Part shown: positions 1-47,884 of the stretch, piece after piece
Position numbering within the stretch: position 1 is the first letter of the stretch
How the letters are laid out: each line of letters begins with the position of its first letter
DNA from: an uncultured Bacillales bacterium
GTDB taxonomy: Bacteria > Bacillota_I > Bacilli_A > RF39 > UBA660
NCBI GenBank assembly: GCA_946629545.1
Contig: CAMOXZ010000001.1
Coordinates: forward strand, 1 to 50,186
Length of the DNA stretch: 50,186 bases
Reading direction: 5' to 3'
Made by a program: the position numbers and the translations under genes
The notes under the pieces: generated by a model
The model's input: the letters and a program-made list of their open reading frames with translations, nothing else
Told to the model about the DNA's origin: nothing
The model's database searches: none

Positions 1-2222
1 ATTACAATTAAAGCAACTGATCAAACAATTAATTATGGTCAATCAATTGCAACTGGAACAGATAAAGTAACAGTTTCAAGTGGAACATTAGTAAGTGGAG
101 ATAGTATAACTGCAATTACATTAGCACAAAGCACAACTAACTACACTACAAATGGAACAATTACACCAAGTGCAGCTACAATCAAGAAATCAAGTACAGA
201 TGTAACAAGCAATTATTCAATTAATTATGCTACAGGTGTATTAAAGATTAATAAAGTAGCAGCAACAAATTCTGTAGCAATTTCTGGTACAAATACATAC
301 GGTAATACATTAACTGCAACTATCACAACAAATAGTGATGGAACTAAGAGTTATCAATGGTATTACAATAGTAGTAATAGTACAAGCGGTGGAACAGCAA
401 TCTCTGGAGCAACAGGAAATACTTATACAATTGGAACAGGTTTAGTAGGTAAATACATTTATGTTAAAGCTAGTGTAGCAGCAGGAACAAACTGGAATGC
501 TGCAACAGATGCTTACGATATAACTGACGCTACTGCAAACTCAACTGCGACAGTAGCAGCAAGAGCTATTACAATTAAAGCAACTGATCAAACAATTAAT
601 TATGGTCAATCAATTGCAACTGGAACAGATAAAGTAACAGTTTCAAGTGGAACATTAGTAAGTGGAGATAGTATAACTGCAATTACATTAGCACAAAGCA
701 CAACTAACTACACTACAAATGGAACAATTACACCAAGTGCAGCAACAATCAGTAAATCTGGAACAGCTATAACTGGTAACTATAATATTAGTTATGCTAC
801 AGGTGTATTAAAGATTAATAAAGTAAATGCAACATGTCCAACAGTATCTAACTATAGTGGACAATATGATGGTGGTACACATACTATTGGAGTAAGTGGA
901 AGTGCTAGTGGTGGAACATTAAAATTCAGTACTGATAATAGTACATGGAGTACAACAAATCCTGCTCTAGGACCAAACGCTGGAACAAATACAACAGTAT
1001 ATGTAAAAGTTGATGGTGATGGAAACCATAACACAGTTAACTGTTACGTAAGTGGAACAACAAGTCCAAAGGTAACAATTACACAAAAGACTGCTACAAA
1101 CTCAGTAGCAATCACAGGAACAAATACTTATGGAAATACATTAACTGCAACTATTACAACAAACAGTAATGGTACTAAGGGATATCAATGGTACTACAAT
1201 AGTAGTAATAGTACTTCAGGAGGAACAGCAATCTCAGGAGCAACAGGAAGTACATATACAATTGGAACAGGATTAGTAGGTAAGTATATCTATGTAGTAG
1301 CGAGTGTAGGAAGTAGTACAAACTACACTACACCAAGTAATTCAACAGATATAACTGACGCTACTGCAAACTCAACTGCGACAGTAGCAGCAAGAGCAAT
1401 TACAATTAAAGCAACTGATCAAACAATTAATTATGGTCAATCAATTGCAACTGGAACAGATAAAGTAACAGTTTCAAGTGGAACATTAGTAAGTGGAGAT
1501 AGTATAACTGCAATTACATTAGCACAAAGCACAACTAACTACACTACAAATGGAACAATTACACCAAGTGCAGCTACAATCAAGAAATCAAGTACAGATG
1601 TAACAAGCAATTATTCAATTAATTATGCTACAGGTGTATTAAAGATTAATAAAGTAGCAGCAACAAATTCTGTAGCAATTTCTGGTACAAATACATACGG
1701 TAATACATTAACTGCAACTATCACAACAAATAGTGATGGAACTAAGAGTTATCAATGGTATTACAATAGTAGTAATAGTACAAGCGGTGGAACAGCAATC
1801 TCTGGAGCAACAGGAAATACTTATACAATTGGAACAGGTTTAGTAGGTAAATACATTTATGTTAAAGCTAGTGTAGCAGCAGGAACAAACTGGAATGCTG
1901 CAACAGATGCTTACGATATAACTGACGCTACTGCAAACTCAACTGCGACAGTAGCAGCAAGAGCTATTACAATTAAAGCAACTGATCAAACAATTAATTA
2001 TGGTCAATCAATTGCAACTGGAACAGATAAAGTAACAGTTTCAAGTGGAACATTAGTAAGTGGAGATAGTATAACTGCAATTACATTAGCACAAAGCACA
2101 ACTAACTACACTACAAATGGAACAATTACACCAAGTGCAGCAACAATCAGTAAATCTGGAACAGCTATAACTGGTAACTATAATATTAGTTATGCTACAG
2201 GTGTATTAAAGATTAATAAAGT
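1..2222 (+). repeat. Long direct in-frame repeat: nt 1-824 are identical to nt 1399-2222 (period 1398 bp = 466 codons). Nested sub-repeats: 1-176 matches 568-743, and 259-567 is similar to 1096-1398
   Basis: A line-by-line comparison of the two copies found no mismatch until nt 825 versus 2223 (gta aat versus gtt gca). Confidence 0.85.
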
Positions 2223-5200
2223 TGCAGCAACATTAACATGTAGTAATAAAACTTATGATGGAACTGAACAAACAGCATGTAGCTGTAGTGGTGGTACAGT
2301 AGGTGGTACATATAAAGCTACATATTATAGTGCAACAGCATATACTGCATCATGTACACCAGATGGTAACCACTCAGCTCCAGAAAATAAGACATGGACA
2401 ATGAGTAAGAGGTCTATTACAATCACTGCAAAACCACAAACAGTTAATTATGGTACAGCAATTAGTAAGACAACAAGTGATGTAACAGTAGCTACTCTTG
2501 GAACTGGTGATACTTTAACTGCAATCACATTAACACAAAGTACAACAAATTACACAACAAATGGAACTATTACACCAAGTGCAGCAACAATTAAGAAATC
2601 AAGCACTGATGTAACAGGAAACTATACTATAAGTTATGCTACAGGTGTATTAAAGATTAATAAAGTTGCAGCAACATTAACATGTAGTAATAAAACTTAT
2701 GATGGAACTGAACAAACAGCATGTAGCTGTAGTGGTGGTACAGTAGGTGGTACATATAAAGCTACATATTATAGTGCAACAGCATATACTGCATCATGTA
2801 CACCAGATGGTAACCACTCAGCTCCAGAAAATAAGACATGGACAATGAGTAAGAGGTCTATTACAATCACTGCAAAACCACAAACAGTTAATTATGGTAC
2901 AGCAATTAGTAAGACAACAAGTGATGTAACAGTAGCTACTCTTGGAACTGGTGATACTTTAACTGCAATCACATTAACACAAAGTACAACAAATTACACA
3001 ACAAATGGAACTATTACACCAAGTGCAGCAACAATTAAGAAATCAAGCACTGATGTAACAGGAAACTATACTATAAGTTATGCTACAGGTGTATTAAAGA
3101 TTAATAAAGTAGCAGCAACATTAACATGTAGTAATAAAACTTATGATGGAACAGAACAAACAGCATGTAGCTGTAGTGGTGGTACAGTAGGTGGAACATA
3201 TAAAGCAACAAATTATAGTGCAACAGCATATACTGCTTCATGTACACCAGATGGAAACCATACTGCTCCAGATAATAAGACATGGACAATGAGTCAAAGA
3301 GCCATTACAGTAACAGCAGGAAGTACTAGTCGTGCATGGAATGGAAATGCATTAACTAATAGTTCTTGTACTATAACAAGTGGTTCATTAGGAACTGGTG
3401 ATAGTGCACCAACATGTGCGATGACTAGTGGAAGTACAATAACAGTAGCAAGTACAACAATAGGACAAAGTGCTAGTGTAAATAATACAATCAACACAGT
3501 AACAATCATGAAAGGAAGCACAAATGTAACAAGTAACTATAACATTACTAAAGCAAATGGAACATTAACAATTTCTTATGCAACTCCAACAGTTAATTTA
3601 ACTGCAAAAGAAACTGCATGGACAGGAAATGCAATTACTGCTAATAATGCAAGTGCAACTCCAAATTCAAGCCCAACATTTACATATACATACTACACAG
3701 ATAGTAGTTGTAGTACACAAACAACAACTTCTCATGGAGCAAGTGCAACTGGAGGAGCACCAAGTGTAGCAGGACAATACTATGTTAAGGCTAAAGCTAG
3801 TCCTGTAAGCACTAAGACTAATGAGGCTTATAGTGCATGTACTTCTCATAAGATTACAGTACCTACACCAACAGTAAGTTTAACTGCAAAAGAGACTGTA
3901 TATACAGGAAGTGCAATTTCTGCTAATACTGCAACAGTAAGCCCTAACTCAAATCCAACAATTACATATGTATACTACACAGATAGTGGATGTAGTACAC
4001 AAACAACTGCAGCAAATAGTGGTGCATCAGCTAATGGATCTGCACCAGTATATGCAGGACAATACTATGTAAAAGCAAATGCAGCAGCTGTAACAAATAA
4101 GACAGCAGCTGCAAGTAGTGCATGTACTTCTCATAAGATTACTCAAAAACCAATCACAGTAACAGCTGGAAGTACTAGTCGTGCATGGGATGGAAATGCT
4201 TTAACAAATAGCAACTGTACAGCTAGTGCTTTAGGAACAGGGGATTCTGTATCTTGTGCAATGACTAGCGGAAGTACAATAACAGTAGCAAGTACAACAA
4301 TTGGATCAAGTGCTAGTGTAAATAATACAATCAACACTGTAACAATCATGAAGGGTAGTGTTAATGTAACAAATAGTTATAGTATTACTAAAGCAACTGG
4401 TACATTAACAATCACTTATGCTGATCCAACAATTAGATTAACTGCAAAAGAGACAAATTATACAGGTAGTCCTATAGCAGCAAATACTGCAAGTGCAAGT
4501 CCTAATTCAAGTCCAAAATTTACATATTATTACTATACAAATAGTTCATGTACTGCTGGTGAAACTACAACAGCACCAACAAATGCAGGACAATATTATG
4601 TAAAAGCAAAAGCAGATCCTGTAAGTACAAAAACAAATGTTGCTTATAGTCAATGTACTTCTCATAAGATAAACAAGATTACATGTCCAGCACCAAGCGG
4701 TGTAACAATAAGTTCCGCTGGCTCAGTATCATGGACAGGAGTTAGTGCAGCAACTGGTTACCAAATAAGTATAGATAATAGTAATTGGACATCAGCAACT
4801 AGTCCAAAAGATTATAAGAGTACTATCACTGCTGCTACAGGAGCAAGAAATGTATATGTACGTAGTGTATGTAATACAACAAACTATTCAAGTTCAACAA
4901 GTGCTAGTGTATATGGATCTACAACAGTATATAGTGTAAGTTTAACTAAGGGTACTGGTATCAGTTCAGTAAGTGGAGCTGGAAACTATATTACTGGTTC
5001 AACAGCTTCAATTAGTGCAGAAGTATCTACTGGATATACATGGGCTAATTGGACAGGTTCATCTACAATATCAGATAGATCAACAAGTATTACAGTAAAT
5101 GGAAATAAATCATATACTGCTAATACAGTATCAAATATTTATACAATTACATTAGATCAACAAAGTGGTTCTGGTGGTACTACAGCAATATATGAAAAAT

Positions 5201-8200
5201 ATGCAACAGGATACTATTTAACAAATAGTGGTGGTACAGTATCTAATCAAATGAGTACAAGTGCTAATGGTGTAACTGTACCTACAAGAACTGGTTATGC
5301 ATTTGGTGGATATTATACTAATACAAATGGTGGAGGAACACAATTTATTGGTACTAATGGTAAATTGACTTCATCAGCAAGTACTACACAGTTTACTGCA
5401 AATGGAAATTTATATGCTAAATGGACAGCTAATACATATACATTAACAATCAATGCAAATGGTGGAACATATTCAGGTACTACACCAAGAACAATGACTT
5501 ATAATGAAACTACTAATAATGATATTGGTGTAGCTTCAAGAGGTGGATATACATTCCTTGGATGGTATGATACACAATACACTGGCGGAACGAAAGTATA
5601 TAATGCTAATGGACAAAAGAATACAGATGCAAGTGCTTATTGGACTTCTGATGGTAAGTGGAAGAAAACAAATAATGTAGAAGTATTTGCACGTTGGAAA
5701 CTTCCAACACCTTCTACTCCAACAATAAATGGTGGAGCTACAAAGGTATATGGATCTACAGCTGCAACACTTACATGTAATCAAAATGTAAGTTATACTG
5801 CAGGTACAAAGATGTATTCATTTGGATATTCAACATCAAGTGGTGTAACACCAACAAGTTGGTCAACTCCATCAACTTCAAATCAACATCTTGTTTATAC
5901 AGATTACTTTGGTTCTAGATATTATTACTGTAAAGTATACTTATCAGATGGAACTGCTGCATGGAATTCTGCGGAATCTACAAGTACATCAACAACAGTT
6001 ACAGTAAATAATGCTACTATCACTTTTAACGCTGGTACTGGTGGTACAGTATCTGGTGGTGTAGAAATTAATGGTACACATTATGCATATGTTAATAATG
6101 GAATGACTGGTTTATACAGTACGAAACAAGGTACTACTGCAATTTCAACACCATATTATCCAATTGCAAGTAAGAATGGTTATGGTTTTGATGGTTGGTA
6201 TACTGAAAACTATAGTGACTTAGTTATTACTACTGCTAAAAGTATCAGTGCTAATACTAGTGTAACGGCTGCAAATAGCTACTGGACAATAACATCTGAT
6301 ATAACACTATATGCAAAATATACACCAAATACTGTTACTGTTACATATAGTTGTGGTGATGATGCTTCACCAAAAACTTTCACTAATGGTTTCCCTGTTG
6401 ATACTGAGGTAACTTTACCAAGTACAGGATGTACAAAACCAGGTTATAAATTAAGTGGATGGGCTAGTACACCAGGTGGTTCAGCATTATCTCAAGGTCA
6501 AGTAATTATGGGCCCTGAACCTATGACATTATATGCACTTTATAGCCCTAATACATATACAATTACATTAGATAAACAAAGTGGTACTGGTGGTACTAGT
6601 ACAATTTATGAAAAATATGCTGATGGATATTACTTAACTAATAGTAATGGAACTCTATCAAATAAAATGAGTACTAGTGCTAATGGTATAACAGTACCAA
6701 CAAGAACATATTTCACATTTGGTGGATACTATACTGCAGCAAATGGTGGTGGTACACAATACATTGATGCTAATGGTAAAATAACAAGTAGTGCAAGTTC
6801 TACCAACTTCACATCTAATGGAACATTATATGCTAAGTGGACTCCTAATAGTTATAGTGTTACACTTGATAATAACTATTATCAAAATGATTTGTTTACG
6901 AAATCTAGTACTTTCCATTGGGATGTATCAGTTTCTTCTGCTGCTGATAAAGATGGTGTATATGCAGTTTATCACATGAAACCTAATAATTCTCAGGGTT
7001 CTAACTATGGTTGGACTAATGATTCAAGTGCTAAGGAAGGTAATTATAAGAGCATGGAATTAGCAAAAAATAGTAAGCCAGGATATTCACAAACAGTGAG
7101 TTTATCAGCAAACACAACTTATACTTGGTCTGTTAGATTAAAATCATCTAGTGCAAGAACAATTCAAATTGGTATTGAAAATGGTGGTTTGAAGAGCGTA
7201 GCTCTGACTACTGATTGGCAAACATTTAGTCATACCTTTACACTAACTACTGCAACTACTCAACCTATCTTCTATTTCGATAAGGCAGGTGCCACTAGTG
7301 CATATGATCTTGATATAAAAGATTTATATTTAGTTCAAGGAGATGGTAGTGGAAAGAGTTCAACTGTTTCGGTTCCTTATGGATCAACATTACAAACACC
7401 TACAAGAACTGGATATACATTCCAGGGTTGGTATACAGATCCTATCGGTGGAACTCAAGTAACAACATTTACTGCTACTAATAATCCAACATATTATGCA
7501 CATTGGACAATAAATACGTATAGATTTGAAATGCAAAATTATTTTAATAATACAATAGCAAATTATGAACTGGTTGGATGTGGTCAAGAAGCAATTTGGA
7601 GTCCCGTAATTACATTATGGGGAATCGAAGGATGGAATGATGATGATGGTCACTGGTATTGGAATCTTCCATATAATACTCCATACAAAGTAGAATTAGT
7701 GACTTCAATTGCATCTACAAAAGATTGTACTTTAAGCGGTCCTACTACATATGAAGGACAGATGGGTGCTTCAAACATTTTAATTAATTTATACTATTCG
7801 TTCACTTCGAAAACATATAGCTATACAGGTGGAACACAATCATTTACCGCTCCTGTAACCGGAACATATTCATTTGATGTATATGGAGCTGCAGGTGCAG
7901 GAACTAATAATCGTGGTAATGGTGGTATGGGTGGTCATTCATCTGGTACTAAGGTATTAAACGGTGGTGATACAATATATGTTGTAGTTGGTAAAAAAGG
8001 TGCTACAAATGGTTCTGTCGCCTATAATGGTGGAGGTAAAGGTAATGGCCATAGTGGTTATACTACTCACGCTGGAGATGGTGGTGGCCTTACACATATA
8101 GGAACTGTAAATAACCAATTAAAGAACTATACATCTGCTCAACGTAATAGCACATACGTTTACATCGTTGCCGGCGGCGGTGGCGGTGGTGCAGGATATG

Positions 8201-8583
8201 CAGGTAATAATGGTGGTACTGGAGGAGGCGAATCTGGTACTAAAGGTGGCGGCTCTTGGGGCGGCGGCGGCGGTACTCAATCCGCCGGTGGTGCTTGGAA
8301 CGGAAGTAGTTCTAATAGTAGTGGAAAAGGTGCATTTGGCCAAGGAGGTCATGCTGTATCAATGAGCTCGTGTGATCACGATCGTATATACGGTGGCGGC
8401 GGCGGCGGCGGCTGGTATGGCGGCGGCGCCGGTGACTATGCTTGTAAGGTAGCAAATCGTAATAAAACTGGTGCCGGTGGTGGTGGTTCCGGATATGTCG
8501 GAGGTGTCACTAACGGTGTCATGGAAAACGGTACGGGCCCTGATAGTAATGGTTCAGCCACAATCACATTGACATCTTACTAA
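1..8583 (+). CDS. Giant repetitive surface/secreted protein, 5'-truncated by the window edge (at least 2860 aa here). Modules: MBG (YGX-type) repeats, Ig-like YQWYY repeats, an FN3-like module (~4680-4920), multiple Listeria-Bacteroides (InlB B-type) repeats (~4920-6850 and 7345-7520), a CBM-like jelly roll (~6870-7340), and a C-terminal glycine-rich domain (~7810-8580)
   Basis: Frame 1 is open from nt 1 to the TAA at 8581-8583. My translation of the parts of 1-2400 I read (nt 1-~260 and 781-1080; the rest rests on nucleotide identity with repeat units I did translate) gives ITIKATDQTINYGQSIATGTDKVTVSSG...YATGVLKINK...YQWYYNSSNSTSGG with no stop and no Met. The track start at 2401 is therefore only the first in-frame ATG. 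Recognised motifs are ITI(K/T)A..QT.NYG...Y.I.YATGVLKINK (MBG) and GY.F.GWYT...GG...LYAKWT (Listeria-Bacteroides repeat). Confidence 0.9.
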   Translation: MTIKATDQTINYGQSIATGTDKVTVSSGTLVSGDSITAITLAQSTTNYTTNGTITPSAATIKKSSTDVTSNYSINYATGVLKINKVAATNSVAISGTNTYGNTLTATITTNSDGTKSYQWYYNSSNSTSGGTAISGATGNTYTIGTGLVGKYIYVKASVAAGTNWNAATDAYDITDATANSTATVAARAITIKATDQTINYGQSIATGTDKVTVSSGTLVSGDSITAITLAQSTTNYTTNGTITPSAATISKSGTAITGNYNISYATGVLKINKVNATCPTVSNYSGQYDGGTHTIGVSGSASGGTLKFSTDNSTWSTTNPALGPNAGTNTTVYVKVDGDGNHNTVNCYVSGTTSPKVTITQKTATNSVAITGTNTYGNTLTATITTNSNGTKGYQWYYNSSNSTSGGTAISGATGSTYTIGTGLVGKYIYVVASVGSSTNYTTPSNSTDITDATANSTATVAARAITIKATDQTINYGQSIATGTDKVTVSSGTLVSGDSITAITLAQSTTNYTTNGTITPSAATIKKSSTDVTSNYSINYATGVLKINKVAATNSVAISGTNTYGNTLTATITTNSDGTKSYQWYYNSSNSTSGGTAISGATGNTYTIGTGLVGKYIYVKASVAAGTNWNAATDAYDITDATANSTATVAARAITIKATDQTINYGQSIATGTDKVTVSSGTLVSGDSITAITLAQSTTNYTTNGTITPSAATISKSGTAITGNYNISYATGVLKINKVAATLTCSNKTYDGTEQTACSCSGGTVGGTYKATYYSATAYTASCTPDGNHSAPENKTWTMSKRSITITAKPQTVNYGTAISKTTSDVTVATLGTGDTLTAITLTQSTTNYTTNGTITPSAATIKKSSTDVTGNYTISYATGVLKINKVAATLTCSNKTYDGTEQTACSCSGGTVGGTYKATYYSATAYTASCTPDGNHSAPENKTWTMSKRSITITAKPQTVNYGTAISKTTSDVTVATLGTGDTLTAITLTQSTTNYTTNGTITPSAATIKKSSTDVTGNYTISYATGVLKINKVAATLTCSNKTYDGTEQTACSCSGGTVGGTYKATNYSATAYTASCTPDGNHTAPDNKTWTMSQRAITVTAGSTSRAWNGNALTNSSCTITSGSLGTGDSAPTCAMTSGSTITVASTTIGQSASVNNTINTVTIMKGSTNVTSNYNITKANGTLTISYATPTVNLTAKETAWTGNAITANNASATPNSSPTFTYTYYTDSSCSTQTTTSHGASATGGAPSVAGQYYVKAKASPVSTKTNEAYSACTSHKITVPTPTVSLTAKETVYTGSAISANTATVSPNSNPTITYVYYTDSGCSTQTTAANSGASANGSAPVYAGQYYVKANAAAVTNKTAAASSACTSHKITQKPITVTAGSTSRAWDGNALTNSNCTASALGTGDSVSCAMTSGSTITVASTTIGSSASVNNTINTVTIMKGSVNVTNSYSITKATGTLTITYADPTIRLTAKETNYTGSPIAANTASASPNSSPKFTYYYYTNSSCTAGETTTAPTNAGQYYVKAKADPVSTKTNVAYSQCTSHKINKITCPAPSGVTISSAGSVSWTGVSAATGYQISIDNSNWTSATSPKDYKSTITAATGARNVYVRSVCNTTNYSSSTSASVYGSTTVYSVSLTKGTGISSVSGAGNYITGSTASISAEVSTGYTWANWTGSSTISDRSTSITVNGNKSYTANTVSNIYTITLDQQSGSGGTTAIYEKYATGYYLTNSGGTVSNQMSTSANGVTVPTRTGYAFGGYYTNTNGGGTQFIGTNGKLTSSASTTQFTANGNLYAKWTANTYTLTINANGGTYSGTTPRTMTYNETTNNDIGVASRGGYTFLGWYDTQYTGGTKVYNANGQKNTDASAYWTSDGKWKKTNNVEVFARWKLPTPSTPTINGGATKVYGSTAATLTCNQNVSYTAGTKMYSFGYSTSSGVTPTSWSTPSTSNQHLVYTDYFGSRYYYCKVYLSDGTAAWNSAESTSTSTTVTVNNATITFNAGTGGTVSGGVEINGTHYAYVNNGMTGLYSTKQGTTAISTPYYPIASKNGYGFDGWYTENYSDLVITTAKSISANTSVTAANSYWTITSDITLYAKYTPNTVTVTYSCGDDASPKTFTNGFPVDTEVTLPSTGCTKPGYKLSGWASTPGGSALSQGQVIMGPEPMTLYALYSPNTYTITLDKQSGTGGTSTIYEKYADGYYLTNSNGTLSNKMSTSANGITVPTRTYFTFGGYYTAANGGGTQYIDANGKITSSASSTNFTSNGTLYAKWTPNSYSVTLDNNYYQNDLFTKSSTFHWDVSVSSAADKDGVYAVYHMKPNNSQGSNYGWTNDSSAKEGNYKSMELAKNSKPGYSQTVSLSANTTYTWSVRLKSSSARTIQIGIENGGLKSVALTTDWQTFSHTFTLTTATTQPIFYFDKAGATSAYDLDIKDLYLVQGDGSGKSSTVSVPYGSTLQTPTRTGYTFQGWYTDPIGGTQVTTFTATNNPTYYAHWTINTYRFEMQNYFNNTIANYELVGCGQEAIWSPVITLWGIEGWNDDDGHWYWNLPYNTPYKVELVTSIASTKDCTLSGPTTYEGQMGASNILINLYYSFTSKTYSYTGGTQSFTAPVTGTYSFDVYGAAGAGTNNRGNGGMGGHSSGTKVLNGGDTIYVVVGKKGATNGSVAYNGGGKGNGHSGYTTHAGDGGGLTHIGTVNNQLKNYTSAQRNSTYVYIVAGGGGGGAGYAGNNGGTGGGESGTKGGGSWGGGGGTQSAGGAWNGSSSNSSGKGAFGQGGHAVSMSSCDHDRIYGGGGGGGWYGGGAGDYACKVANRNKTGAGGGGSGYVGGVTNGVMENGTGPDSNGSATITLTSY
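2221..3290 (+). repeat. Tandem 444-bp (148-codon) repeat: copies 2221-2664 and 2665-3108 are identical. A diverged partial third copy spans 3109-~3290
   Basis: Direct comparison of the nucleotide lines. The protein unit VAATLTCSNKTYDGTEQTACSCSGG...KTWTMSKRSITITAKPQTVNYG...GVLKINK repeats exactly. Confidence 0.9.
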
Positions 8584-8595
8584 ACACCGTAATAA

Positions 8596-8625
8596 AAATA
8601 CTGACTAAATGTCAGTATTTTTTTG
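8596..8625 (+). terminator. Intrinsic terminator of the giant gene
   Basis: 10-bp stem aaatactgac/gtcagtattt with loop taaat, followed by a T-run. Confidence 0.8.
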
Positions 8626-8729
8626 TGTTAATTATTAGGTTTTTATTGTATAATATTTATGTAAATAGATGTTTATTTTGTCTTTATAAGTGTATTGATA
8701 AGTCATTTATTGTGGTTTAAGGTGGTTAT

Positions 8730-9557
8730 ATGGAGAAGTATAAAGAGATAGAAAGAAGTATAATAAAGAAATATCGTAAAGATATTTGGAGTTTATTTGT
8801 TAAAGCTTGTCAGGAATTTGAACTTATTCAAGAAAATGATAAGATAATGGTTTGTATAAGTGGAGGAAAAGATTCATTTTTATTAGCTAAATGTATGGAA
8901 GAGATTAAAAGACATGGTAAAGTTAATTTTGACTTATGTTTTGTATGTATGAATCCTGGATATAGTGAAAAGAATAGAAAACTTATATTAAGTAATGCTA
9001 AAAAGATGAATATTGATCTTGAGATGTTTGATTCTGATATCTTTGATATAGTAAAAGATGTTGATAGAAGTCCATGCTACTTATGTGCTAGGATGAGAAG
9101 AGGTTGTCTATATAATAAAGCTAAAGAACTTGGATGTAATAAAATAGCACTTGGTCATCACTTTGATGATGTTATTGAAACTATTCTATTATCTATGTTT
9201 TATGGGGCTGAGATTAAGACTATGATGCCTAAACTACATAGTGAAAACTTTGAAGGATTAGAACTTATTAGACCCTTATATTTTGTTCATGAAGAGGCAG
9301 TTAAATCCTGGGCTAAATTTAATGGTTTGACCTTCCTAAACTGTGCTTGTAGGTTTACAGAAGAGAACTATGAAAAGGTGGAAACTGATAGTAAGAGATT
9401 AGAAATGAAAAGATTAATTAAGAAATTAAAAGAGTCTAATCCAAATATTGATTATAATATTTATAAAGCACTTGATAATATTAATTTAGATTGTGTAATT
9501 GGATATAAGAAAGAAAAGCAAAAATATAGTTTTTTAGAAGATTATGATAAAAAGTAA
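8730..9557 (+). CDS. ttcA: TtcA-family PP-loop ATPase (tRNA 2-thiocytidine synthetase-like)
   Basis: SGGKDS PP-loop, CYLCARMRRG and ALGHHFDDVIETILLSMFYG...MMPKL motifs typical of TtcA. Confidence 0.8.
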   Translation: MEKYKEIERSIIKKYRKDIWSLFVKACQEFELIQENDKIMVCISGGKDSFLLAKCMEEIKRHGKVNFDLCFVCMNPGYSEKNRKLILSNAKKMNIDLEMFDSDIFDIVKDVDRSPCYLCARMRRGCLYNKAKELGCNKIALGHHFDDVIETILLSMFYGAEIKTMMPKLHSENFEGLELIRPLYFVHEEAVKSWAKFNGLTFLNCACRFTEENYEKVETDSKRLEMKRLIKKLKESNPNIDYNIYKALDNINLDCVIGYKKEKQKYSFLEDYDKK

Positions 9558-9570
9558 TCTTTTTTTTTGT

Positions 9571-9599
9571 TTGACATAAACTACCGATATCGGTATAAT
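9571..9599 (+). promoter_or_regulatory. Consensus sigma-A promoter (TTGACA-17-TATAAT). A perfect 14-bp palindrome TACCGATATCGGTA (9582-9595) spans the spacer and the -10 element
   Basis: TTGACA at 9571-9576, a 17-nt spacer, TATAAT at 9594-9599. SD gaggtgg at 9606-9612 and ATG at 9617. Confidence 0.7.
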
Positions 9600-9616
9600 A
9601 TGCTTGAGGTGGTTTT

Positions 9617-10537
9617 ATGGAATATATGACAACAAAAGAGGCTGTGAAGAAGTGGAATATTAGTGAAAGAAGAATAAGACAATTATTGAATGAATCTAGA
9701 ATAGAAGGGGCTATAAAGATTGGTAATAGTTGGAATATTCCAATTGATGCAGATAAGCCTATTGATAAAAGAAGTACGAGTATTGGCAATATTAAATTTG
9801 GGATAAATGATGATTATTTTGAGAGGGTGGAAAAGTTACTCATAGAATATAGAACTAAGATGAATGAATCTAGTAATAGTGTTAAGTCATTACAAAATGC
9901 GATTAACTTAGAATGGACATATAATAGTAATGGTATAGAGGGTAATACTTTAACATTGCGTGAGACTCAAGTTGTTTTAGAAGGAATTACTATTGGAGGT
10001 AAAACTCTAAAAGAACATTTAGAGGTAATTAATCATGATAAAGCTATTTTATTATTAGAAGATATAGTTAAGGATAAGGAACCTATAAGTGAGTGGAATA
10101 TTAAATGTATTCATGGATTAATATTAAGAGAAATAGATGATAAGAATGCGGGTAAATATAGAGAAGAGAATGTTATTATAAAGGGAGCTAAGCATATACC
10201 TCCTAATCATCTTATTGTTCATGAATTAATGGAAAAATTAATAATAAATTATGGTAGTTGGAAGAAATATCATCCTATTATAAGAGCTTCTTTATTACAT
10301 GGAGAATTAGTTAAAATACATCCATTTATTGATGGTAATGGTAGAGTTTCTAGATTAGTTATGAATTTATCACTTATGAATAGTGGTTATCTTCCAGTTA
10401 TTATTAAAAAAGATACGAGATTAGAGTATTATAATGTATTAGATAAAGCTCATACTACTGGTGATTATACGGAGTTTATTAAATTAATAAATGATCTTGA
10501 GATAGAGATGTTAAGTAAGTATTTGGAATTATTATAA
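9617..10537 (+). CDS. Fic-domain protein with an N-terminal excisionase/MerR-like HTH (class II Fic with an N-terminal inhibitory motif)
   Basis: Fic motif HPFIDGNGRVSR. Inhibitory-helix motif S-NGI-E-G (SNGIEGN) fits (S/T)xxxE(G/N). The N-terminus MTTKEAVKKWNISERRIRQLL resembles an HTH. Confidence 0.85.
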   Translation: MEYMTTKEAVKKWNISERRIRQLLNESRIEGAIKIGNSWNIPIDADKPIDKRSTSIGNIKFGINDDYFERVEKLLIEYRTKMNESSNSVKSLQNAINLEWTYNSNGIEGNTLTLRETQVVLEGITIGGKTLKEHLEVINHDKAILLLEDIVKDKEPISEWNIKCIHGLILREIDDKNAGKYREENVIIKGAKHIPPNHLIVHELMEKLIINYGSWKKYHPIIRASLLHGELVKIHPFIDGNGRVSRLVMNLSLMNSGYLPVIIKKDTRLEYYNVLDKAHTTGDYTEFIKLINDLEIEMLSKYLELL

Positions 10538-28127: not shown

Positions 28128-28933
28128 ATGGAAATAAAAGTAGAAAATCAAATTATAATTATATTAAATTTGATGGGGAAGATTATATTTCTATAACTGA
28201 TATGTTAAAAAATAAAGATGGATATTTCTTTATTACTGATTGGTTAAGAAATAGGAATACTCTTGAATTTTTAGGTATATGGGAAGAACTTAATAACCCT
28301 AGTTTTAATTATGGCGAATTCGCCATAATTAGAAGTCAATCAGGATTAAATAGTTTTAAAATAAGTGTAAAAGAGTGGGTAGAAAAAACTAATGCAGTTG
28401 GAATTATATCTAAGGCAGGTAGATATGGTGGTACCTATGCTCATAAAGATATTGCTTTTGAATTTGGAATGTGGATTAGTCCAAAATTCAAATTACTATT
28501 GATAAAAGAATTCGAAAGATTAAAAAAACAGGAACAGTCCAAAATAGAATGGAATGCTAAAAGAGAATTATCTAAGATTAACTATCATATTCATACAAGT
28601 GCTATTAAACATAATTTAATACCAAATAAATTGACTAAAGAACAAATAAACTATGTGTATGCAGAAGAAGCAGACGTATTAAATATGGCTTTATTCGGTG
28701 TTACTGCTAAACAATGGAGAGAAGAACATCCTAATATGGGTGGAAATATTAGAGATTATGCATCAATAAATGAATTAATATGTTTGGCAAATTTAGAAAA
28801 CTTAAATTCTGTCTTTATTAAGGATGGTATCAGTCAATCAATACGATTAGGGAGATTAAATAAAATTGCAATATTGCAAATGAATGTATTAAATATGAGT
28901 GATAAAAGTACAACAAAAAAAGAGATTACTTAG
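28128..28933 (+). pseudogene. KilA-N domain gene with an apparent 1-nt frameshift near codon 10
   Basis: A strong SD (AAAGGAGG) precedes ATG 28128, which gives MEIKVENQIIIILNLMGKIIFL and then a stop. The main ORF frame is open from 28139 and encodes ...NYNYIKFDGEDYISITDMLKNKDGYFFITDWLRNRNTLEFLGIWE..., the KilA-N family N-terminus. The track ATG at 28202 has no SD. Confidence 0.6.
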
Positions 28934-34865: not shown

Positions 34866-35062
34866 ATATTTTGTGAAGAAAAAGAAGTAGTAATAAATTA
34901 ATTCTTTTTAGAGAGTCTATGGTTGGTGGAAATAGATAGGAATTGTTTATGAACTTGTCTTTGGAGCAATTGGGTAATTCCGTTATAAATTATGAGGTAA
35001 TTTATATTACAAATTAAGGTGGTACCACGGAATTTCGTCCTTAGGATGAAGTTCTTTTTTTT
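34866..35062 (+). promoter_or_regulatory. T-box riboswitch leader, leucine specifier (CUU)
   Basis: AGAGAG at 34910-34915, GAA-CTT-G specifier context with CTT at 34954-34956, T-box sequence AATTAAGGTGGTACCACGG at 35012-35030, and a terminator stem at 35030-35054 followed by T8. Confidence 0.85.
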
Positions 35063-37914: not shown

Positions 37915-39051
37915 ATGTCTAATAAAAAAGAATTTGTTGTAGTAGCGGGAAAAAAGTTTTCATTATCTGCATATGAATATTTATTAAGTAGATTTAAAGA
38001 GGCTTTCTCTCATACAAGTCTTTCTGTTGAAAAGGCTTATGAAGAGTTAGAAAAATGTAATATAACTCTTGAAAAATCTATGGATAAAAATGCATATGAA
38101 TATTATTCATTATTGCCACATAGTGAGAGAAATAGAATTAGAAGTATCCTACACCAAATAATAGTGTTTAAAGGATCTGTTTATGGTGTGATTACTGAGA
38201 AGTTAACAGGGGATACTAAACAATTTGAAAGATTATATCATGATAATTTTATGTATTTTGAAAAATATATATATTATTATATTAGATATGATGCTGATGG
38301 TAATTTTGATAAAGTTGCTACACTACATAATTTAGATACATTATTTGTAAATTTACCATTAAGAAGATTAGCTTATGATAAAGCTTATAATATGAAGAAA
38401 GATAATCTAGATGCATTTGACTATGCTATGTGTTTAGATGAAATAACTTCTGAAGAAATTATCAATATAAATAGTTTAGTTAACTTTAGTGATGTTGATA
38501 AAGTAGATGGTTATAAGACTACTAATAATGATATCGTAACTTCTTCATTTACTCCACTAGATAAAAAGTTTGTTCCTAGTGAAATGGAAAAGTTATTAGA
38601 AGATTATAAACATGATTTTGGATTAACTATATTAGATCCAGATGAAGAAAATATTACTACTGAAGAGAGAAATAAAAGAAGATATAAGTTATTTGAAAAA
38701 GAAGCTACTTTTCATATAAGATTTGAAAGAATCCACCCATTCAATGATGGTAATGGTAGAACTGGTAGAATTATTATGAATAGGAACTTATTAAAGAGTA
38801 AACAAGCTCCAGTATTAATAACAGATGTAATGTCAGATGATTATAAACATTATATTAATACATTTGATGTAGATGGATTAACTAAATTATTATTAAGTAG
38901 TTCATCACAACAATTATCTAACTGGATTTCTTTATATAAAGCAGGACTTGAAATTAGAAAGAAAACTATTAATCCTAATAATGATAAATTAGCTGAATTA
39001 GAAGAATACAGTGAAGGTAAAAAACATATTAAAAAGAAAAATGATGATTAA
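37915..39051 (+). CDS. Fic-domain protein with a long uncharacterised N-terminal region
   Basis: HPFNDGNGRTGR Fic motif near residue 275. Confidence 0.8.
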   Translation: MSNKKEFVVVAGKKFSLSAYEYLLSRFKEAFSHTSLSVEKAYEELEKCNITLEKSMDKNAYEYYSLLPHSERNRIRSILHQIIVFKGSVYGVITEKLTGDTKQFERLYHDNFMYFEKYIYYYIRYDADGNFDKVATLHNLDTLFVNLPLRRLAYDKAYNMKKDNLDAFDYAMCLDEITSEEIININSLVNFSDVDKVDGYKTTNNDIVTSSFTPLDKKFVPSEMEKLLEDYKHDFGLTILDPDEENITTEERNKRRYKLFEKEATFHIRFERIHPFNDGNGRTGRIIMNRNLLKSKQAPVLITDVMSDDYKHYINTFDVDGLTKLLLSSSSQQLSNWISLYKAGLEIRKKTINPNNDKLAELEEYSEGKKHIKKKNDD

Positions 39052-41477: not shown

Positions 41478-41498
41478 AAAAGGACTAAGTCCTTTTTA
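41477..41498. terminator. Bidirectional hairpin between the convergent flippase and fem genes
   Basis: Stem aaaaagga/tccttttt with loop ctaag. Confidence 0.55.
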
Positions 41499-42788
41499 TT
41501 TTTTAACTATTTTTTTAAGTCCATGGTATAGAGAAAATGTTATTTTATACATTCTATACCAGAATTTAGATATTATTAAATCATATTCACCAATTAATTC
41601 TACTACATGACCTCCAAATGACTTTTTAAATAGATATAATCCAAATAATGGGTTTTCTTTTCTAAAGTCACCTGTAATACCATAGAAGTTATATCTTTTA
41701 TAGTGATTATCTATAGCATATTTAACTCCAGCATAGTGTACTGAATAGGCTGATTGGAATTGCATTAAGTTATCATCTGTTCCTCCAAATAATGATAATA
41801 CTTCATTACCATAAATTAGGAATAGGATAGTACCTAATACTTTCTTTTCTCCATATTCTTTAATATATTCATTAATCTTATCTATTTGTTTATTTAATCT
41901 TTCAATATTATCTTTATCTAATTTATTAGAAGATTCATATTTTTTTTCATTCATTTGAAGAATATTATTATCATGTTTATAAATTCTATCTTTAAGAGCT
42001 TTTTCTGTTTCTTCTAATTCTAATTTAGTATTTTCTAAATACTTATTAAAATCTATTTCTCCAATGAGTATTTTTAAGATACCTGAATCATGTAGATTAT
42101 CCCACATACCTTCATAATAAGATAGGGGACGATCTATGAAATCACGTCTATCTCCAGTGTGTTCCATAATAGATTTAAATACTGGTAGTTCATCTCTTGT
42201 GATTTCACGTGTTGTGATACAGCTTTTCTCATTTTTTCTAAGTATTTGTCTTGTTTTAGATTCCATGTCAGCTTGTACTTCTTCTTCTGTTCTACCATTA
42301 ATTTCTATAACATGCATCCATCTAGGTTGAAGTGTATCTTGCATTAAATTAAATCCATGAAATTTATATCCTAATTTCTTTAGGTTTTCTACAGATTCTT
42401 TATTATTATATCCATCTTCAACAATGTTACCATCATTATCACGTTCTTGGTATTCTACATATGGATCTATTTTTACAAATATTCCACCTTTTTCTTTTAC
42501 AAATTTTTTTAATTCTATTGTGAATTCTTTTAATAAATCATAGTTATTATAATCTATTAAGAAACCTCTAGGTGAGTAAAACATTTTCTTTTTTATTATT
42601 GGAACATTCTTAGCTAAAAGTAGAGCTCCAGCTACAACTTTATCATTATCTTTTAGTCCTACATAGTAAGAATCCCAACCATTTATTTTTTTTAAGTTAG
42701 CCCATTCTTCTGTTTGGTGGAAAGTAATTTGAGGATGTTTATCAGCAAACTTTTTAAATTCATCTTTATTTAGAATCGTTAATTGCAT
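41496..42788 (-). CDS. FemAB-family peptidoglycan-bridge aminoacyltransferase (copy 2)
   Basis: FHQTEEWANLK, FYSPRGFLIDY, QPRWMHVI and YFYGITG motifs, plus a central coiled-coil insertion. Confidence 0.85.
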   Translation of the reverse strand: MQLTILNKDEFKKFADKHPQITFHQTEEWANLKKINGWDSYYVGLKDNDKVVAGALLLAKNVPIIKKKMFYSPRGFLIDYNNYDLLKEFTIELKKFVKEKGGIFVKIDPYVEYQERDNDGNIVEDGYNNKESVENLKKLGYKFHGFNLMQDTLQPRWMHVIEINGRTEEEVQADMESKTRQILRKNEKSCITTREITRDELPVFKSIMEHTGDRRDFIDRPLSYYEGMWDNLHDSGILKILIGEIDFNKYLENTKLELEETEKALKDRIYKHDNNILQMNEKKYESSNKLDKDNIERLNKQIDKINEYIKEYGEKKVLGTILFLIYGNEVLSLFGGTDDNLMQFQSAYSVHYAGVKYAIDNHYKRYNFYGITGDFRKENPLFGLYLFKKSFGGHVVELIGEYDLIISKFWYRMYKITFSLYHGLKKIVKK

Positions 42789-44037
42789 GTTTTACCTCCT
42801 TAATATGTTTTCTCTTTACTGTTTTTCTATATATTGGTACTAATTTAGTAAATACAAAGTACATAAAATGATTAGTAATATAATCTAATTCTCCAATAAA
42901 CTCTGTGTATTCTCCACCTAATCTCTTTTTGAATAACCAAATACCATATTCCGGATCATCATTACTTGGATTATATGAAGTTCCAAAGAAATCAATAGTT
43001 TTATATCCTTCTTTAACAGCATCTTTTATTATTTCATAATAAATTAAATAATTAGCATTTAAAGTTCTAAGTTCAGAACTATTACCACCATGTATTGTCC
43101 ATACTTTATCTCCATATTTAGTTGTGATTATGGATGATAGAGGATATTTATCTTCTTTTATATTATTTATTTCCGAAATTAGTTTATTTAATCTATCTAT
43201 TTGATTACCTAATTCTTTCTTTTTATTTTCACTTGTTAGTTTACTAGAACTTTCTTCTAAATTACTTAAATTATTGTTTAATAAGTTTAAAGTTTTTTCT
43301 TTATTTAAATAAACTATATAAATATCACTATGATTATTTTTATGAAGATCTTTATAAAATGATAGATAGTATTGTTTTGAGTATATTGAGATGTTTTCTC
43401 TATCAGCAGTTGCTTGCATAGTTTTATAAAAATCATCTATATATTTTTCATCATTTTTAAATATTTCTAATTCATAGATATTCCCTTTATTAATAATCTT
43501 TTTAGTAGTTGAATGAAGATTATTATTAATACTTTCTAAACCTTCTGTTAAATCTAGTCTAAAGGTATATCTTGGTTGATTATGTTCAAATGCTTTATTA
43601 TAACCAAGGTGTTTATAACCTAGTTTTTTTAAATAATCAACTAATTCATAATTATCTTTTCCTTCTATTTTATTTCCATCTAAATCAAGTTGTTGTAGTT
43701 TTACATCTGGATCTATTTTAAGAAATATAGCTTTTTGTTTTTTAATAAATGAAACTGTTTTTTGAGTCATTTCTTTTATTACTTCTTTATCATTATAGTC
43801 TAATACAAATCCTCTAGGAGCATAGAAATAACTATAACCTAATGGTAAGTTTTTCTTTAAAAGTAGAGTAGCTGCAACTACTTTATCTTCTTTTGTTAAT
43901 CCTAAATAGAAAGGTGTTAATCCTTTTTCTTTTTGAGCAAATTCACCCCAATCAGTTGATTGAAGAAAATGTGATTTATTATGAGTTGAGACGAAATTTT
44001 CAAATTTATCTTTCTCTAATGTAACTAATTCATACAT
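42766..44037 (-). CDS. FemAB-family peptidoglycan-bridge aminoacyltransferase (copy 1)
   Basis: FLQSTDWGEF, FYAPRGFVLDY, QPRYTFRLDL and DFFGTS motifs, plus a coiled-coil insertion. It overlaps copy 2 by 23 nt. Confidence 0.85.
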   Translation of the reverse strand: MYELVTLEKDKFENFVSTHNKSHFLQSTDWGEFAQKEKGLTPFYLGLTKEDKVVAATLLLKKNLPLGYSYFYAPRGFVLDYNDKEVIKEMTQKTVSFIKKQKAIFLKIDPDVKLQQLDLDGNKIEGKDNYELVDYLKKLGYKHLGYNKAFEHNQPRYTFRLDLTEGLESINNNLHSTTKKIINKGNIYELEIFKNDEKYIDDFYKTMQATADRENISIYSKQYYLSFYKDLHKNNHSDIYIVYLNKEKTLNLLNNNLSNLEESSSKLTSENKKKELGNQIDRLNKLISEINNIKEDKYPLSSIITTKYGDKVWTIHGGNSSELRTLNANYLIYYEIIKDAVKEGYKTIDFFGTSYNPSNDDPEYGIWLFKKRLGGEYTEFIGELDYITNHFMYFVFTKLVPIYRKTVKRKHIKEVKHAINDSK

Positions 44038-47679: not shown

Positions 47680-47884
47680 AAGTTTTCAGTGATGAAAGAA
47701 ATAGTAGTAAAATAATTATTATTTAGAGATCTAATGGTTGGTGAAAATTAGAAATATTGTTTTATGAATTACAACTTTCTAGAAAACATCGTTAACTGCG
47801 TTAAAGTATAAGTGCATGTAATACATGAATTAAGGTGGTACCGCGAATAATTCGTCCTTAGGATGATTATTTCGCGTTTTTTTA
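47680..47884 (+). promoter_or_regulatory. T-box riboswitch leader, tyrosine specifier (UAC)
   Basis: AGAGA at 47725-47729, specifier TAC at 47770-47772 followed by A, T-box AATTAAGGTGGTACCGCG at 47828-47845, and a terminator at 47843-47876 followed by T8. Confidence 0.88.

Follow-up and report, generated by a model that had tools for sequence, protein, structure and literature searches.

The last 257 codons of a giant open reading frame (ORF), which opens a 50,186-nucleotide stretch of DNA from an uncultured Bacillales bacterium (contig CAMOXZ010000001.1; this whole stretch is hereafter the window), encode a genuine member of PF12810, the Pfam family of the glycine-rich domain (GRD) of the animal receptor kinases ALK and LTK. 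A first-pass annotation, made from the letters of the sequence, had described this region as an ALK/LTK-type domain at the distal tip of a giant surface protein, in the position expected for a ligand-binding head. The observation was confirmed by our analysis and its interpretation is partly supported: with somewhat better than even confidence, we favour a reading in which the GRD is the ligand-binding head of an N-terminally held fibre, comprising a conserved scaffold with variable specificity loops.

Identity and fold of the glycine-rich domain

Translation of positions 7810-8583 reproduced exactly the tail sequence quoted in the first-pass annotation, ending in ...NGSATITLTSY and a stop codon, and the isolated 257-aa tail matched PF12810 (ALK_LTK_GRD, formerly Gly_rich) with 65.4 bits (E = 1e-17; cutoff 24.5) over profile positions 7-203 of 243. 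A score of 49.8 bits was obtained with the GRD embedded in a 360-aa fragment, and the match vanished on scanning all 2860 residues of the visible protein in one piece. Annotation pipelines may, as a side observation, systematically overlook GRDs within giant, compositionally biased proteins. Searches of NCBIfam and PADLOC returned no family for the domain.

As glycine makes up 31.5% of the tail, composition controls based on shuffling and reversal were run. Against a profile of its relatives from which the query had been left out, the GRD scored 181.8 bits; the maximum among 500 shuffled sequences was -31.5 bits, and the reversed sequence scored -34.7 bits. Comparison of the single GRD sequence with PDB sequences gave only a chance match (cytochrome c1, E = 0.42), and a profile was therefore needed. 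An alignment of 119 GRD relatives (A1) provided the basis for both this profile and the structural model described below. Searched against 177,635 PDB sequences, the A1 profile retrieved ALK (E = 1.5e-10), SCD-2 (E = 2.5e-9) and LTK (E = 1.3e-6); the sole other row was a chance-level match to Hoc (E = 0.47), with nothing else below 0.4. In the profile alignments, glycine blocks and flanking strands follow the same order as in ALK, LTK and SCD-2, and non-glycine strands are also conserved across A1 (YTG..Q.FT.P..G.Y...V.GA.G; GGGATHI; V.IVAGGGGG; GNG.A.IT).

The AlphaFold2 (AF2) model of the GRD generated from A1 was of high confidence, with a predicted local distance difference test (pLDDT) value of 92.6 and a predicted template modelling (pTM) score of 0.92. 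Assignment of secondary structure with DSSP identified seven strands in residues 2-121 and two in residues 234-256, separated by a core that is non-helical and non-strand; the glycine blocks, modelled with pLDDT >90 as neither helix nor strand, align with the glycine blocks of ALK. Foldseek comparison of the model with the PDB returned 21 significant chains, all of them ALK, LTK or SCD-2 TG domains (E 3e-8 to 2e-6, prob 1.0), and the next match had E > 1. Both the family match and the predicted fold are clearly removed from the outcome that the first-pass annotation had set against its own claim, namely the lack of a Gly_rich match together with a disordered or unrelated fold. In the model, the N- and C-terminal strands would form a TNF-like sandwich carrying a lattice of glycine-rich segments.

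Together, these results bear on whether a generic glycine-rich tail has merely attracted a glycine-rich hidden Markov model. The glycine content itself, large HMMER bias terms on the ALK alignments and the loss of the Pfam match in the whole-protein scan would all be expected of such a low-complexity artefact, but neither shuffled nor reversed controls reach -30 bits, as against 181.8 bits for the genuine tail, and the PDB profile search retrieves ALK, LTK and SCD-2 without any collagen, keratin or further glycine-rich chain. The confidence of the AF2 model, the exclusivity of the Foldseek matches to the ALK/LTK/SCD-2 fold and the conservation of the non-glycine strands further argue against it. 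We consider the artefact ruled out by the shuffled and reversed controls, with a negligible residual probability.

Sequence variation in the family gathers in the loops between conserved glycine blocks. Across the 119 relatives, the least conserved blocks correspond to aa 81-90, 161-170, 181-190 and 211-220 of the domain, and coincide with dips in the pLDDT of the AF2 model. Conversely, invariant positions in A1 are almost all glycine, with no conserved polar pocket. The domain and three of its variable loops map to the window as follows.

7810..8580, + strand: ALK/LTK-type glycine-rich domain (PF12810), predicted beta-sandwich and glycine blocks, 257 aa; Pfam, profile, AF2 and Foldseek
8290..8319, + strand: GRD variable loop aa 161-170; conservation 0.21, pLDDT 73
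8350..8388, + strand: GRD variable loop aa 181-193, containing Cys188; conservation and AF2 model
8434..8469, + strand: GRD variable loop aa 209-220, mostly allele-specific, containing Cys212; occupancy 0.35

With the TG supradomain of ALK, LTK and SCD-2 (PDB 7N00, 7NWZ, 7NX0/1, 7LS0, 7LIR), its sole fold matches in the PDB, the window GRD shares the Pfam family, the order of glycine blocks, terminal strands flanking a glycine-rich core and, presumably for the window protein, an extracellular location. The two differ in length (257 aa as against ~310 aa for the animal domain) and share ~20% sequence identity at a TM-score of 0.43-0.52. Further, the window protein ends 0 aa past the GRD and, unlike ALK and LTK, has no EGF-like module, transmembrane helix or kinase. 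Since the ALKAL/Augmentor ligands are animal proteins, any ligand of the window GRD must be a different one. The window GRD is a member of the family, and the window protein is not an ALK-like receptor.

Stalk, topology and locus of the giant protein

The giant ORF is open in frame 1 of the + strand from base 1 to the stop codon at 8581-8583. Its 5' end lies beyond the start of the window, and the visible 2860 aa represent the product of the 3' part of the gene. Threonine and serine account for 19% and 12% of these residues, respectively. No transmembrane segment was found in the visible 2860 aa (highest 19-aa hydropathy 1.09), nor was a C-terminal LPXTG sorting signal, the sole LPSTG being internal (aa 2139). 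Stalk modules were identified by scanning the protein against Pfam in pieces, with the following result.

1..8583, + strand: 3' part of the giant ORF, 2860 codons and stop; Thr/Ser/Gly/Ala/Asn-rich
1..3300, + strand: tandem MBG-like and Ig-like stalk units, near-identical; MBG_2 matches (23.7 and 22.3 bits) short of the 25-bit cutoff
4936..5124, + strand: divergent InlB B-repeat (Flg_new_2), weak, 22.7 bits (cutoff 23.6)
5437..5619, + strand: Flg_new (Listeria-Bacteroides) repeat; Pfam
6337..6537, + strand: Flg_new repeat; Pfam
7072..7281, + strand: CBM_4_9-like region, borderline, 26.2 bits (cutoff 25.9)
7348..7503, + strand: last Flg_new repeat; Pfam
7504..7809, + strand: X domain, ~100 aa, preceding the GRD and kept together with it in syntenic alleles
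8594..8632, + strand: terminator-like hairpin (8594-8622) and T tract, 11 nt past the stop codon

The first-pass annotation had proposed a stalk of MBG, Ig-like and InlB-B repeats leading to a jelly roll resembling a carbohydrate-binding module (CBM), with the GRD just after it. Flg_new repeats are indeed present; the MBG_2 matches remain just under their cutoff, and the CBM_4_9 match only narrowly exceeds its own. The GRD does not directly follow the CBM-like region, because the last Flg_new repeat and the X domain lie between them. No Pfam or PHROG match was found for the X domain. In an AF2 model of the last Flg_new repeat, X and GRD together, the GRD stays confident, and the upstream 155 aa, which had no alignment, show pLDDT <50.

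At the nucleotide level, positions 1-561 are 100% identical to 1399-1959, and further long direct repeats were identified at 568-867, 1966-2265 and 2410-3245; the start of the window falls within one of the long repeats of the ORF. The giant ORF also departs in base composition from the remainder of the window (GC ~34.5% with a strongly positive AT skew, as against ~26% GC; 1-10000 compared with 10000-50186). This is consistent with Thr/Gly/Ala-rich coding, and a foreign origin is also possible. The giant fibrillar adhesins of Firmicutes, built of Ig-like, MBG and Flg_new modules and equipped with a single specialised binding domain, are likewise long, hydrophilic, Thr/Ser-rich arrays of tandem beta-modules with near-identical DNA repeats and loci that are hypervariable between strains. 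The window protein differs from them in lacking a C-terminal LPXTG signal and in bearing a PF12810 GRD in place of a lectin, TED or LRR head.

We compared the window with the loci that are syntenic with it in sister strains (L012/L013 and L015-L017; positions 1-8458 of L012 and 1-8469 of L015 and L016). Flanking genes are 73-95% identical to those of the window, six of the seven compared falling within 85-95% and a 122-aa ORF at 73%. The giant proteins, of at least 3255-4876 aa in the sister strains, align only over X and the GRD (36% identity by BLAST, 43-46% by MAFFT), with weak Flg_new matches elsewhere. Exactly one GRD is present in every sister-strain allele (86.5 bits against Pfam in L012), and the substitutions, insertions and deletions that distinguish the alleles fall in its loops, with glycine blocks and strands kept. 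Judging from these alignments, the locus is hypervariable, its flanks being conserved and its giant proteins sharing the X and GRD module only. Also identified was an extra 165-aa gene without a Pfam match between the giant and ttcA-like genes (8609-9106 in L012, 8610-9107 in L015); the corresponding spacer in the window is only 146 nt. Another ortholog (L001), 99.7% identical to the window protein, carries no information on variation of the tip. The description of the GRD as the extreme C-terminus, taken from the window protein, holds for that protein; as ~370 further residues trail the GRD in the syntenic alleles, the terminal position is a trait of the window allele and not of the locus.

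All of the contigs found for the giant gene, including all short-read contigs of relatives, break inside it, leaving at least 628, 3255, 4155 and 4876 aa. A scan of genome contigs revealed only two distant relatives of the stalk. One of these (L003, 1107-9647), from a metagenome-assembled genome labelled Muribaculaceae, encodes a complete 2846-aa protein with 59% identity across the modules in common. It begins with a signal-anchor, MNDRKRMILTIVAIFLVGLVITGGSYAYFSW, that is weakly SipW-type-like (TIGR04088 E = 0.062), and ends in a Cys-rich tail (…DCDTAQCMIDTIDCILDGGTWTGSSCYR) in place of the GRD; similar stalks thus bear interchangeable tips. The other (L004) encodes a protein of >3000 aa with a prepilin-like N-terminus, MKKTNKGITLMALVITVIVLLILA. 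The N-terminal domain of L003 recurs, at 43-61% identity, in the GRD-bearing giants P0164 and P0261, and four GRD-terminal giants (P0250, P0251, P0263 and P0273) possess Sec-type or YAFFSD-type N-termini. Given the lack of a C-terminal anchor and the N-terminal segments of these relatives, the most likely topology is one in which the protein is either anchored at its N-terminus or secreted, and bears the GRD at its distal end. The earlier placement of the domain at the distal tip of a surface protein thus draws its support from the relatives and from the visible part, which has neither a transmembrane segment nor a C-terminal LPXTG signal, the N-terminus itself lying outside the window.

Family breadth and possible function of the domain

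A profile searched exhaustively against 1.84 billion representatives identified 24,783 proteins at E <= 1e-3, including 6,163 at E <= 1e-30. The best 150 profile matches (P0142-P0291), exemplified by P0146, P0150, P0153 and P0154, consist largely of PF12810 domains, 2-11 in tandem, and reach lengths of 7.8 k aa. The context of the window GRD is hence less special than the first-pass annotation implied, as the family numbers ~24,800 cluster representatives, many of them giant and with C-terminal or multiple GRD copies. In the 120 nearest relatives, at most 10 aa separate the end of the GRD from the C-terminus in 73 cases; the N-termini of the 120 are heterogeneous and comprise Sec signals, true prepilin GFTLIE leaders, or no signal; the signal-less relatives are phage proteins. 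PF12810 has long included bacterial and phage members, and because the family is very large in both, the window GRD is a solid but fairly ordinary further member.

Closer examination of the phage and prophage relatives revealed a recurrent association with tail modules. One relative consisting of the GRD only (P0021) is encoded in a prophage tail module with the order tape measure, Prophage_tail, collagen, CBM_5_12, GRD, collagen, holin, and another, combining Flg_new with a GRD (P0050), lies at the end of a tail module, one 139-aa gene upstream of a holin and a GH25 lysin. Three PHROG families (7388, 5811 and 1589), categorised there as of 'unknown function', also carry the domain. Foldseek comparison with BFVD identified 92 viral models at E <= 1e-3, with TM-scores (TMq) of up to 0.77, a better fit than that of ALK; these include proteins named 'putative short tail fibre', 'tail collar' and 'virion structural'. 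Many phage and giant-virus matches in BFVD are automatically named 'receptor protein-tyrosine kinase', which looks like a misannotation by domain rule. The phage and prophage GRD proteins include the PHROG members, P0021, P0050 and the cyanophage 'putative short tail fibre' C7BVH9; the closest are 37-45% identical to the window GRD, and some likewise pair Flg_new with a C-terminal GRD. They are, however, short (250-450 aa) and encoded in tail modules beside lysis genes, whereas the window protein is a chromosomal giant. A tblastn search of 50,697 GenBank phage records gave no match at 1e-5, to which low-complexity filtering may contribute. Literature searches returned no paper on bacterial or phage ALK-type GRD members, in keeping with the earlier statement that bacterial members have essentially no assigned function, and reviews of polyproline-II (PPII) bundles list ALK, LTK and SCD-2 only for this fold (PMC13243192, bioRxiv 10.1101/2023.11.25.568672). 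As a clue to function, the phage tail-module contexts outweigh the analogy with cytokine binding in animals.

A similar pattern of conserved blocks and variable loops is found in the gp38 adhesin of T2-type phages and Salmonella phage S16 (PDB 6F45), in which glycine-rich motifs form a rigid polyglycine-II (PGII) scaffold and hypervariable loops at the fibre tip set receptor specificity (PMC12892980, bioRxiv 10.1101/2023.11.25.568672). Unlike the TG-type fold modelled for the window GRD, gp38 has no TNF-like sandwich. Homology between the two was rejected, there being no Foldseek or sequence match to 6F45, and the likeness is one of analogy only.

In the reading that we favour, the protein would be exported, with an N-terminal signal or anchor encoded beyond the window holding it in place, and the stalk of tandem beta-sandwich modules would carry X and the GRD outward from the cell. 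The invariant glycine blocks and beta-strands would constitute the rigid scaffold of a binding head, the specificity of which might be set by the poorly conserved loops (aa 81-90, 141-150, 161-170, 181-193, 209-220 and 231-250), the putative target being a surface glycopolymer or protein of another cell. Homologous single-domain proteins at prophage tail-fibre positions appear to do the same job. Several observations weigh against a binding head of this kind. Many family members are long proteins (up to 7.8 k aa) with 2-11 GRDs in a row, and in the three PHROG profiles the domain is N-terminal, so that it is not always a tip. The topology is itself deduced from relatives, because the N-terminus lies beyond the window and beyond every contig found, and in the syntenic alleles the ~370 residues after the GRD, which have no Pfam match, would place it short of the end. 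The fit to solved ALK/LTK structures is limited (TMq only 0.43-0.52; root-mean-square deviation 7.6-10 Å), and literature searches gave no ligand for any bacterial or phage member.

Two other roles were weighed against a displayed binding head. The C-terminal GRD could act as a non-covalent wall anchor, comparable to GW, SLH, LysM or CBD modules, binding the wall polymer of the producer and leaving the N-terminal part displayed. Such a role would account for a C-terminal GRD in a protein without LPXTG; phage receptor-binding modules for Gram-positive wall polymers are often reused as wall-targeting domains, and GRD relatives occur in prophage tail modules. Two FemAB enzymes, builders of interpeptide bridges, are also encoded in the genome, and binding of a hexaglycine peptide by a glycine-rich PPII bundle has been predicted with AlphaFold (PMC13243192). 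Conversely, stalk relatives and other GRD-terminal giants already possess N-terminal signal-anchor or prepilin-like segments, and in short relatives a prepilin is fused directly to the GRD, which must therefore be the displayed end of those proteins. The residues following the GRD in the syntenic alleles, and loops that diverge strongly between sister strains expected to share wall chemistry, further render wall anchoring unlikely.

Alternatively, the GRD might be purely structural and, with no specific ligand, serve to stabilise or end the fibre as a rigid cap or spacer. The thousands of proteins in which 2-11 GRDs are arranged as beads on a string, the near-restriction of invariant positions to glycine without a conserved polar pocket, and the description of glycine-rich PPII bundles as very stable scaffolds (bioRxiv 10.1101/2023.11.25.568672) are what a structural element might be expected to show. 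It would less readily explain why the GRD is kept at a syntenic locus which is otherwise wholly reshuffled, with divergence concentrated in loops, or why relatives recur at prophage tail-fibre positions and on prepilins; in animals, moreover, the same fold is a ligand-binding site, as judged from PDB titles. A solely structural role consequently appears to us quite improbable, and a ligand-binding head remains the reading that we prefer.

Neighbouring genes and wider implications

The neighbours of the giant gene are housekeeping genes of a Gram-positive bacterium of ~26% GC, encoding a TtcA-like ATP-binding protein, Fic, LysM, peptidoglycan-binding and NlpC/P60 proteins, RNase R, CdaA and YbbR, a sortase with a TED/SpaA protein, FTHFS, GH31, LeuRS, TyrRS and the two FemAB-family proteins. 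The closest named relatives of the LeuRS, at 89-90% identity, are labelled 'MAG: Bacilli bacterium'. The locus belongs to a chromosome and to neither a phage nor a plasmid. Features of further note among these neighbours are listed below.

9617-10537 and 37915-39051, + strand: two Fic-domain proteins, the first with an N-terminal segment resembling a helix-turn-helix
21792-23470, - strand: sortase gene overlapping the gene for a 400-aa protein with thioester (TED) and SpaA domains
28202-28933, + strand: KilA-N domain protein among housekeeping genes; domain
34867-35045 and 47680-47862, + strand: T-box leaders upstream of LeuRS and TyrRS (Rfam RF00230, 101 and 94 bits)
41496-44037, - strand: two tandem FemAB-family genes; family

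From their domains, the sortase and TED-SpaA pair is predicted to be an adhesin or pilin system in its own right, with covalent attachment. The tandem FemAB genes point to an extra interpeptide bridge in the peptidoglycan; speculatively, such a bridge might matter if glycine-rich PGII bundles bind glycine-rich peptides. The KilA-N gene may have been left behind by a mobile element.

To a specialist in the family, one more PF12810 member ending one more giant protein will come as no surprise. Modest additional interest derives from the link to phage tail fibres, from a hypervariable locus that keeps the X and GRD module only, and from a possible prokaryotic or viral descent of the animal domain; in addition, the analysis provides a testable hypothesis, that of a scaffold with variable binding loops. 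The glycine-rich domain of ALK and LTK is medically important. The structural literature treats its fold as an animal curiosity, and the relatives identified here demonstrate a wide spread outside animals. A broader proposition, which we advance tentatively and hold to be less probable than its contrary, is that this fold is primarily a prokaryotic and viral receptor-binding module, with a PGII/TNF-like scaffold and hypervariable loops, deployed on tail fibres, pilins and giant fibres and, at a hypervariable adhesin locus of gut 'Bacilli', subject to diversifying selection, the cytokine-binding domain of animals being a late offshoot that was possibly acquired horizontally. If this were true, the window protein would represent a convenient bacterial model in which to find the first non-animal ligand of the fold.

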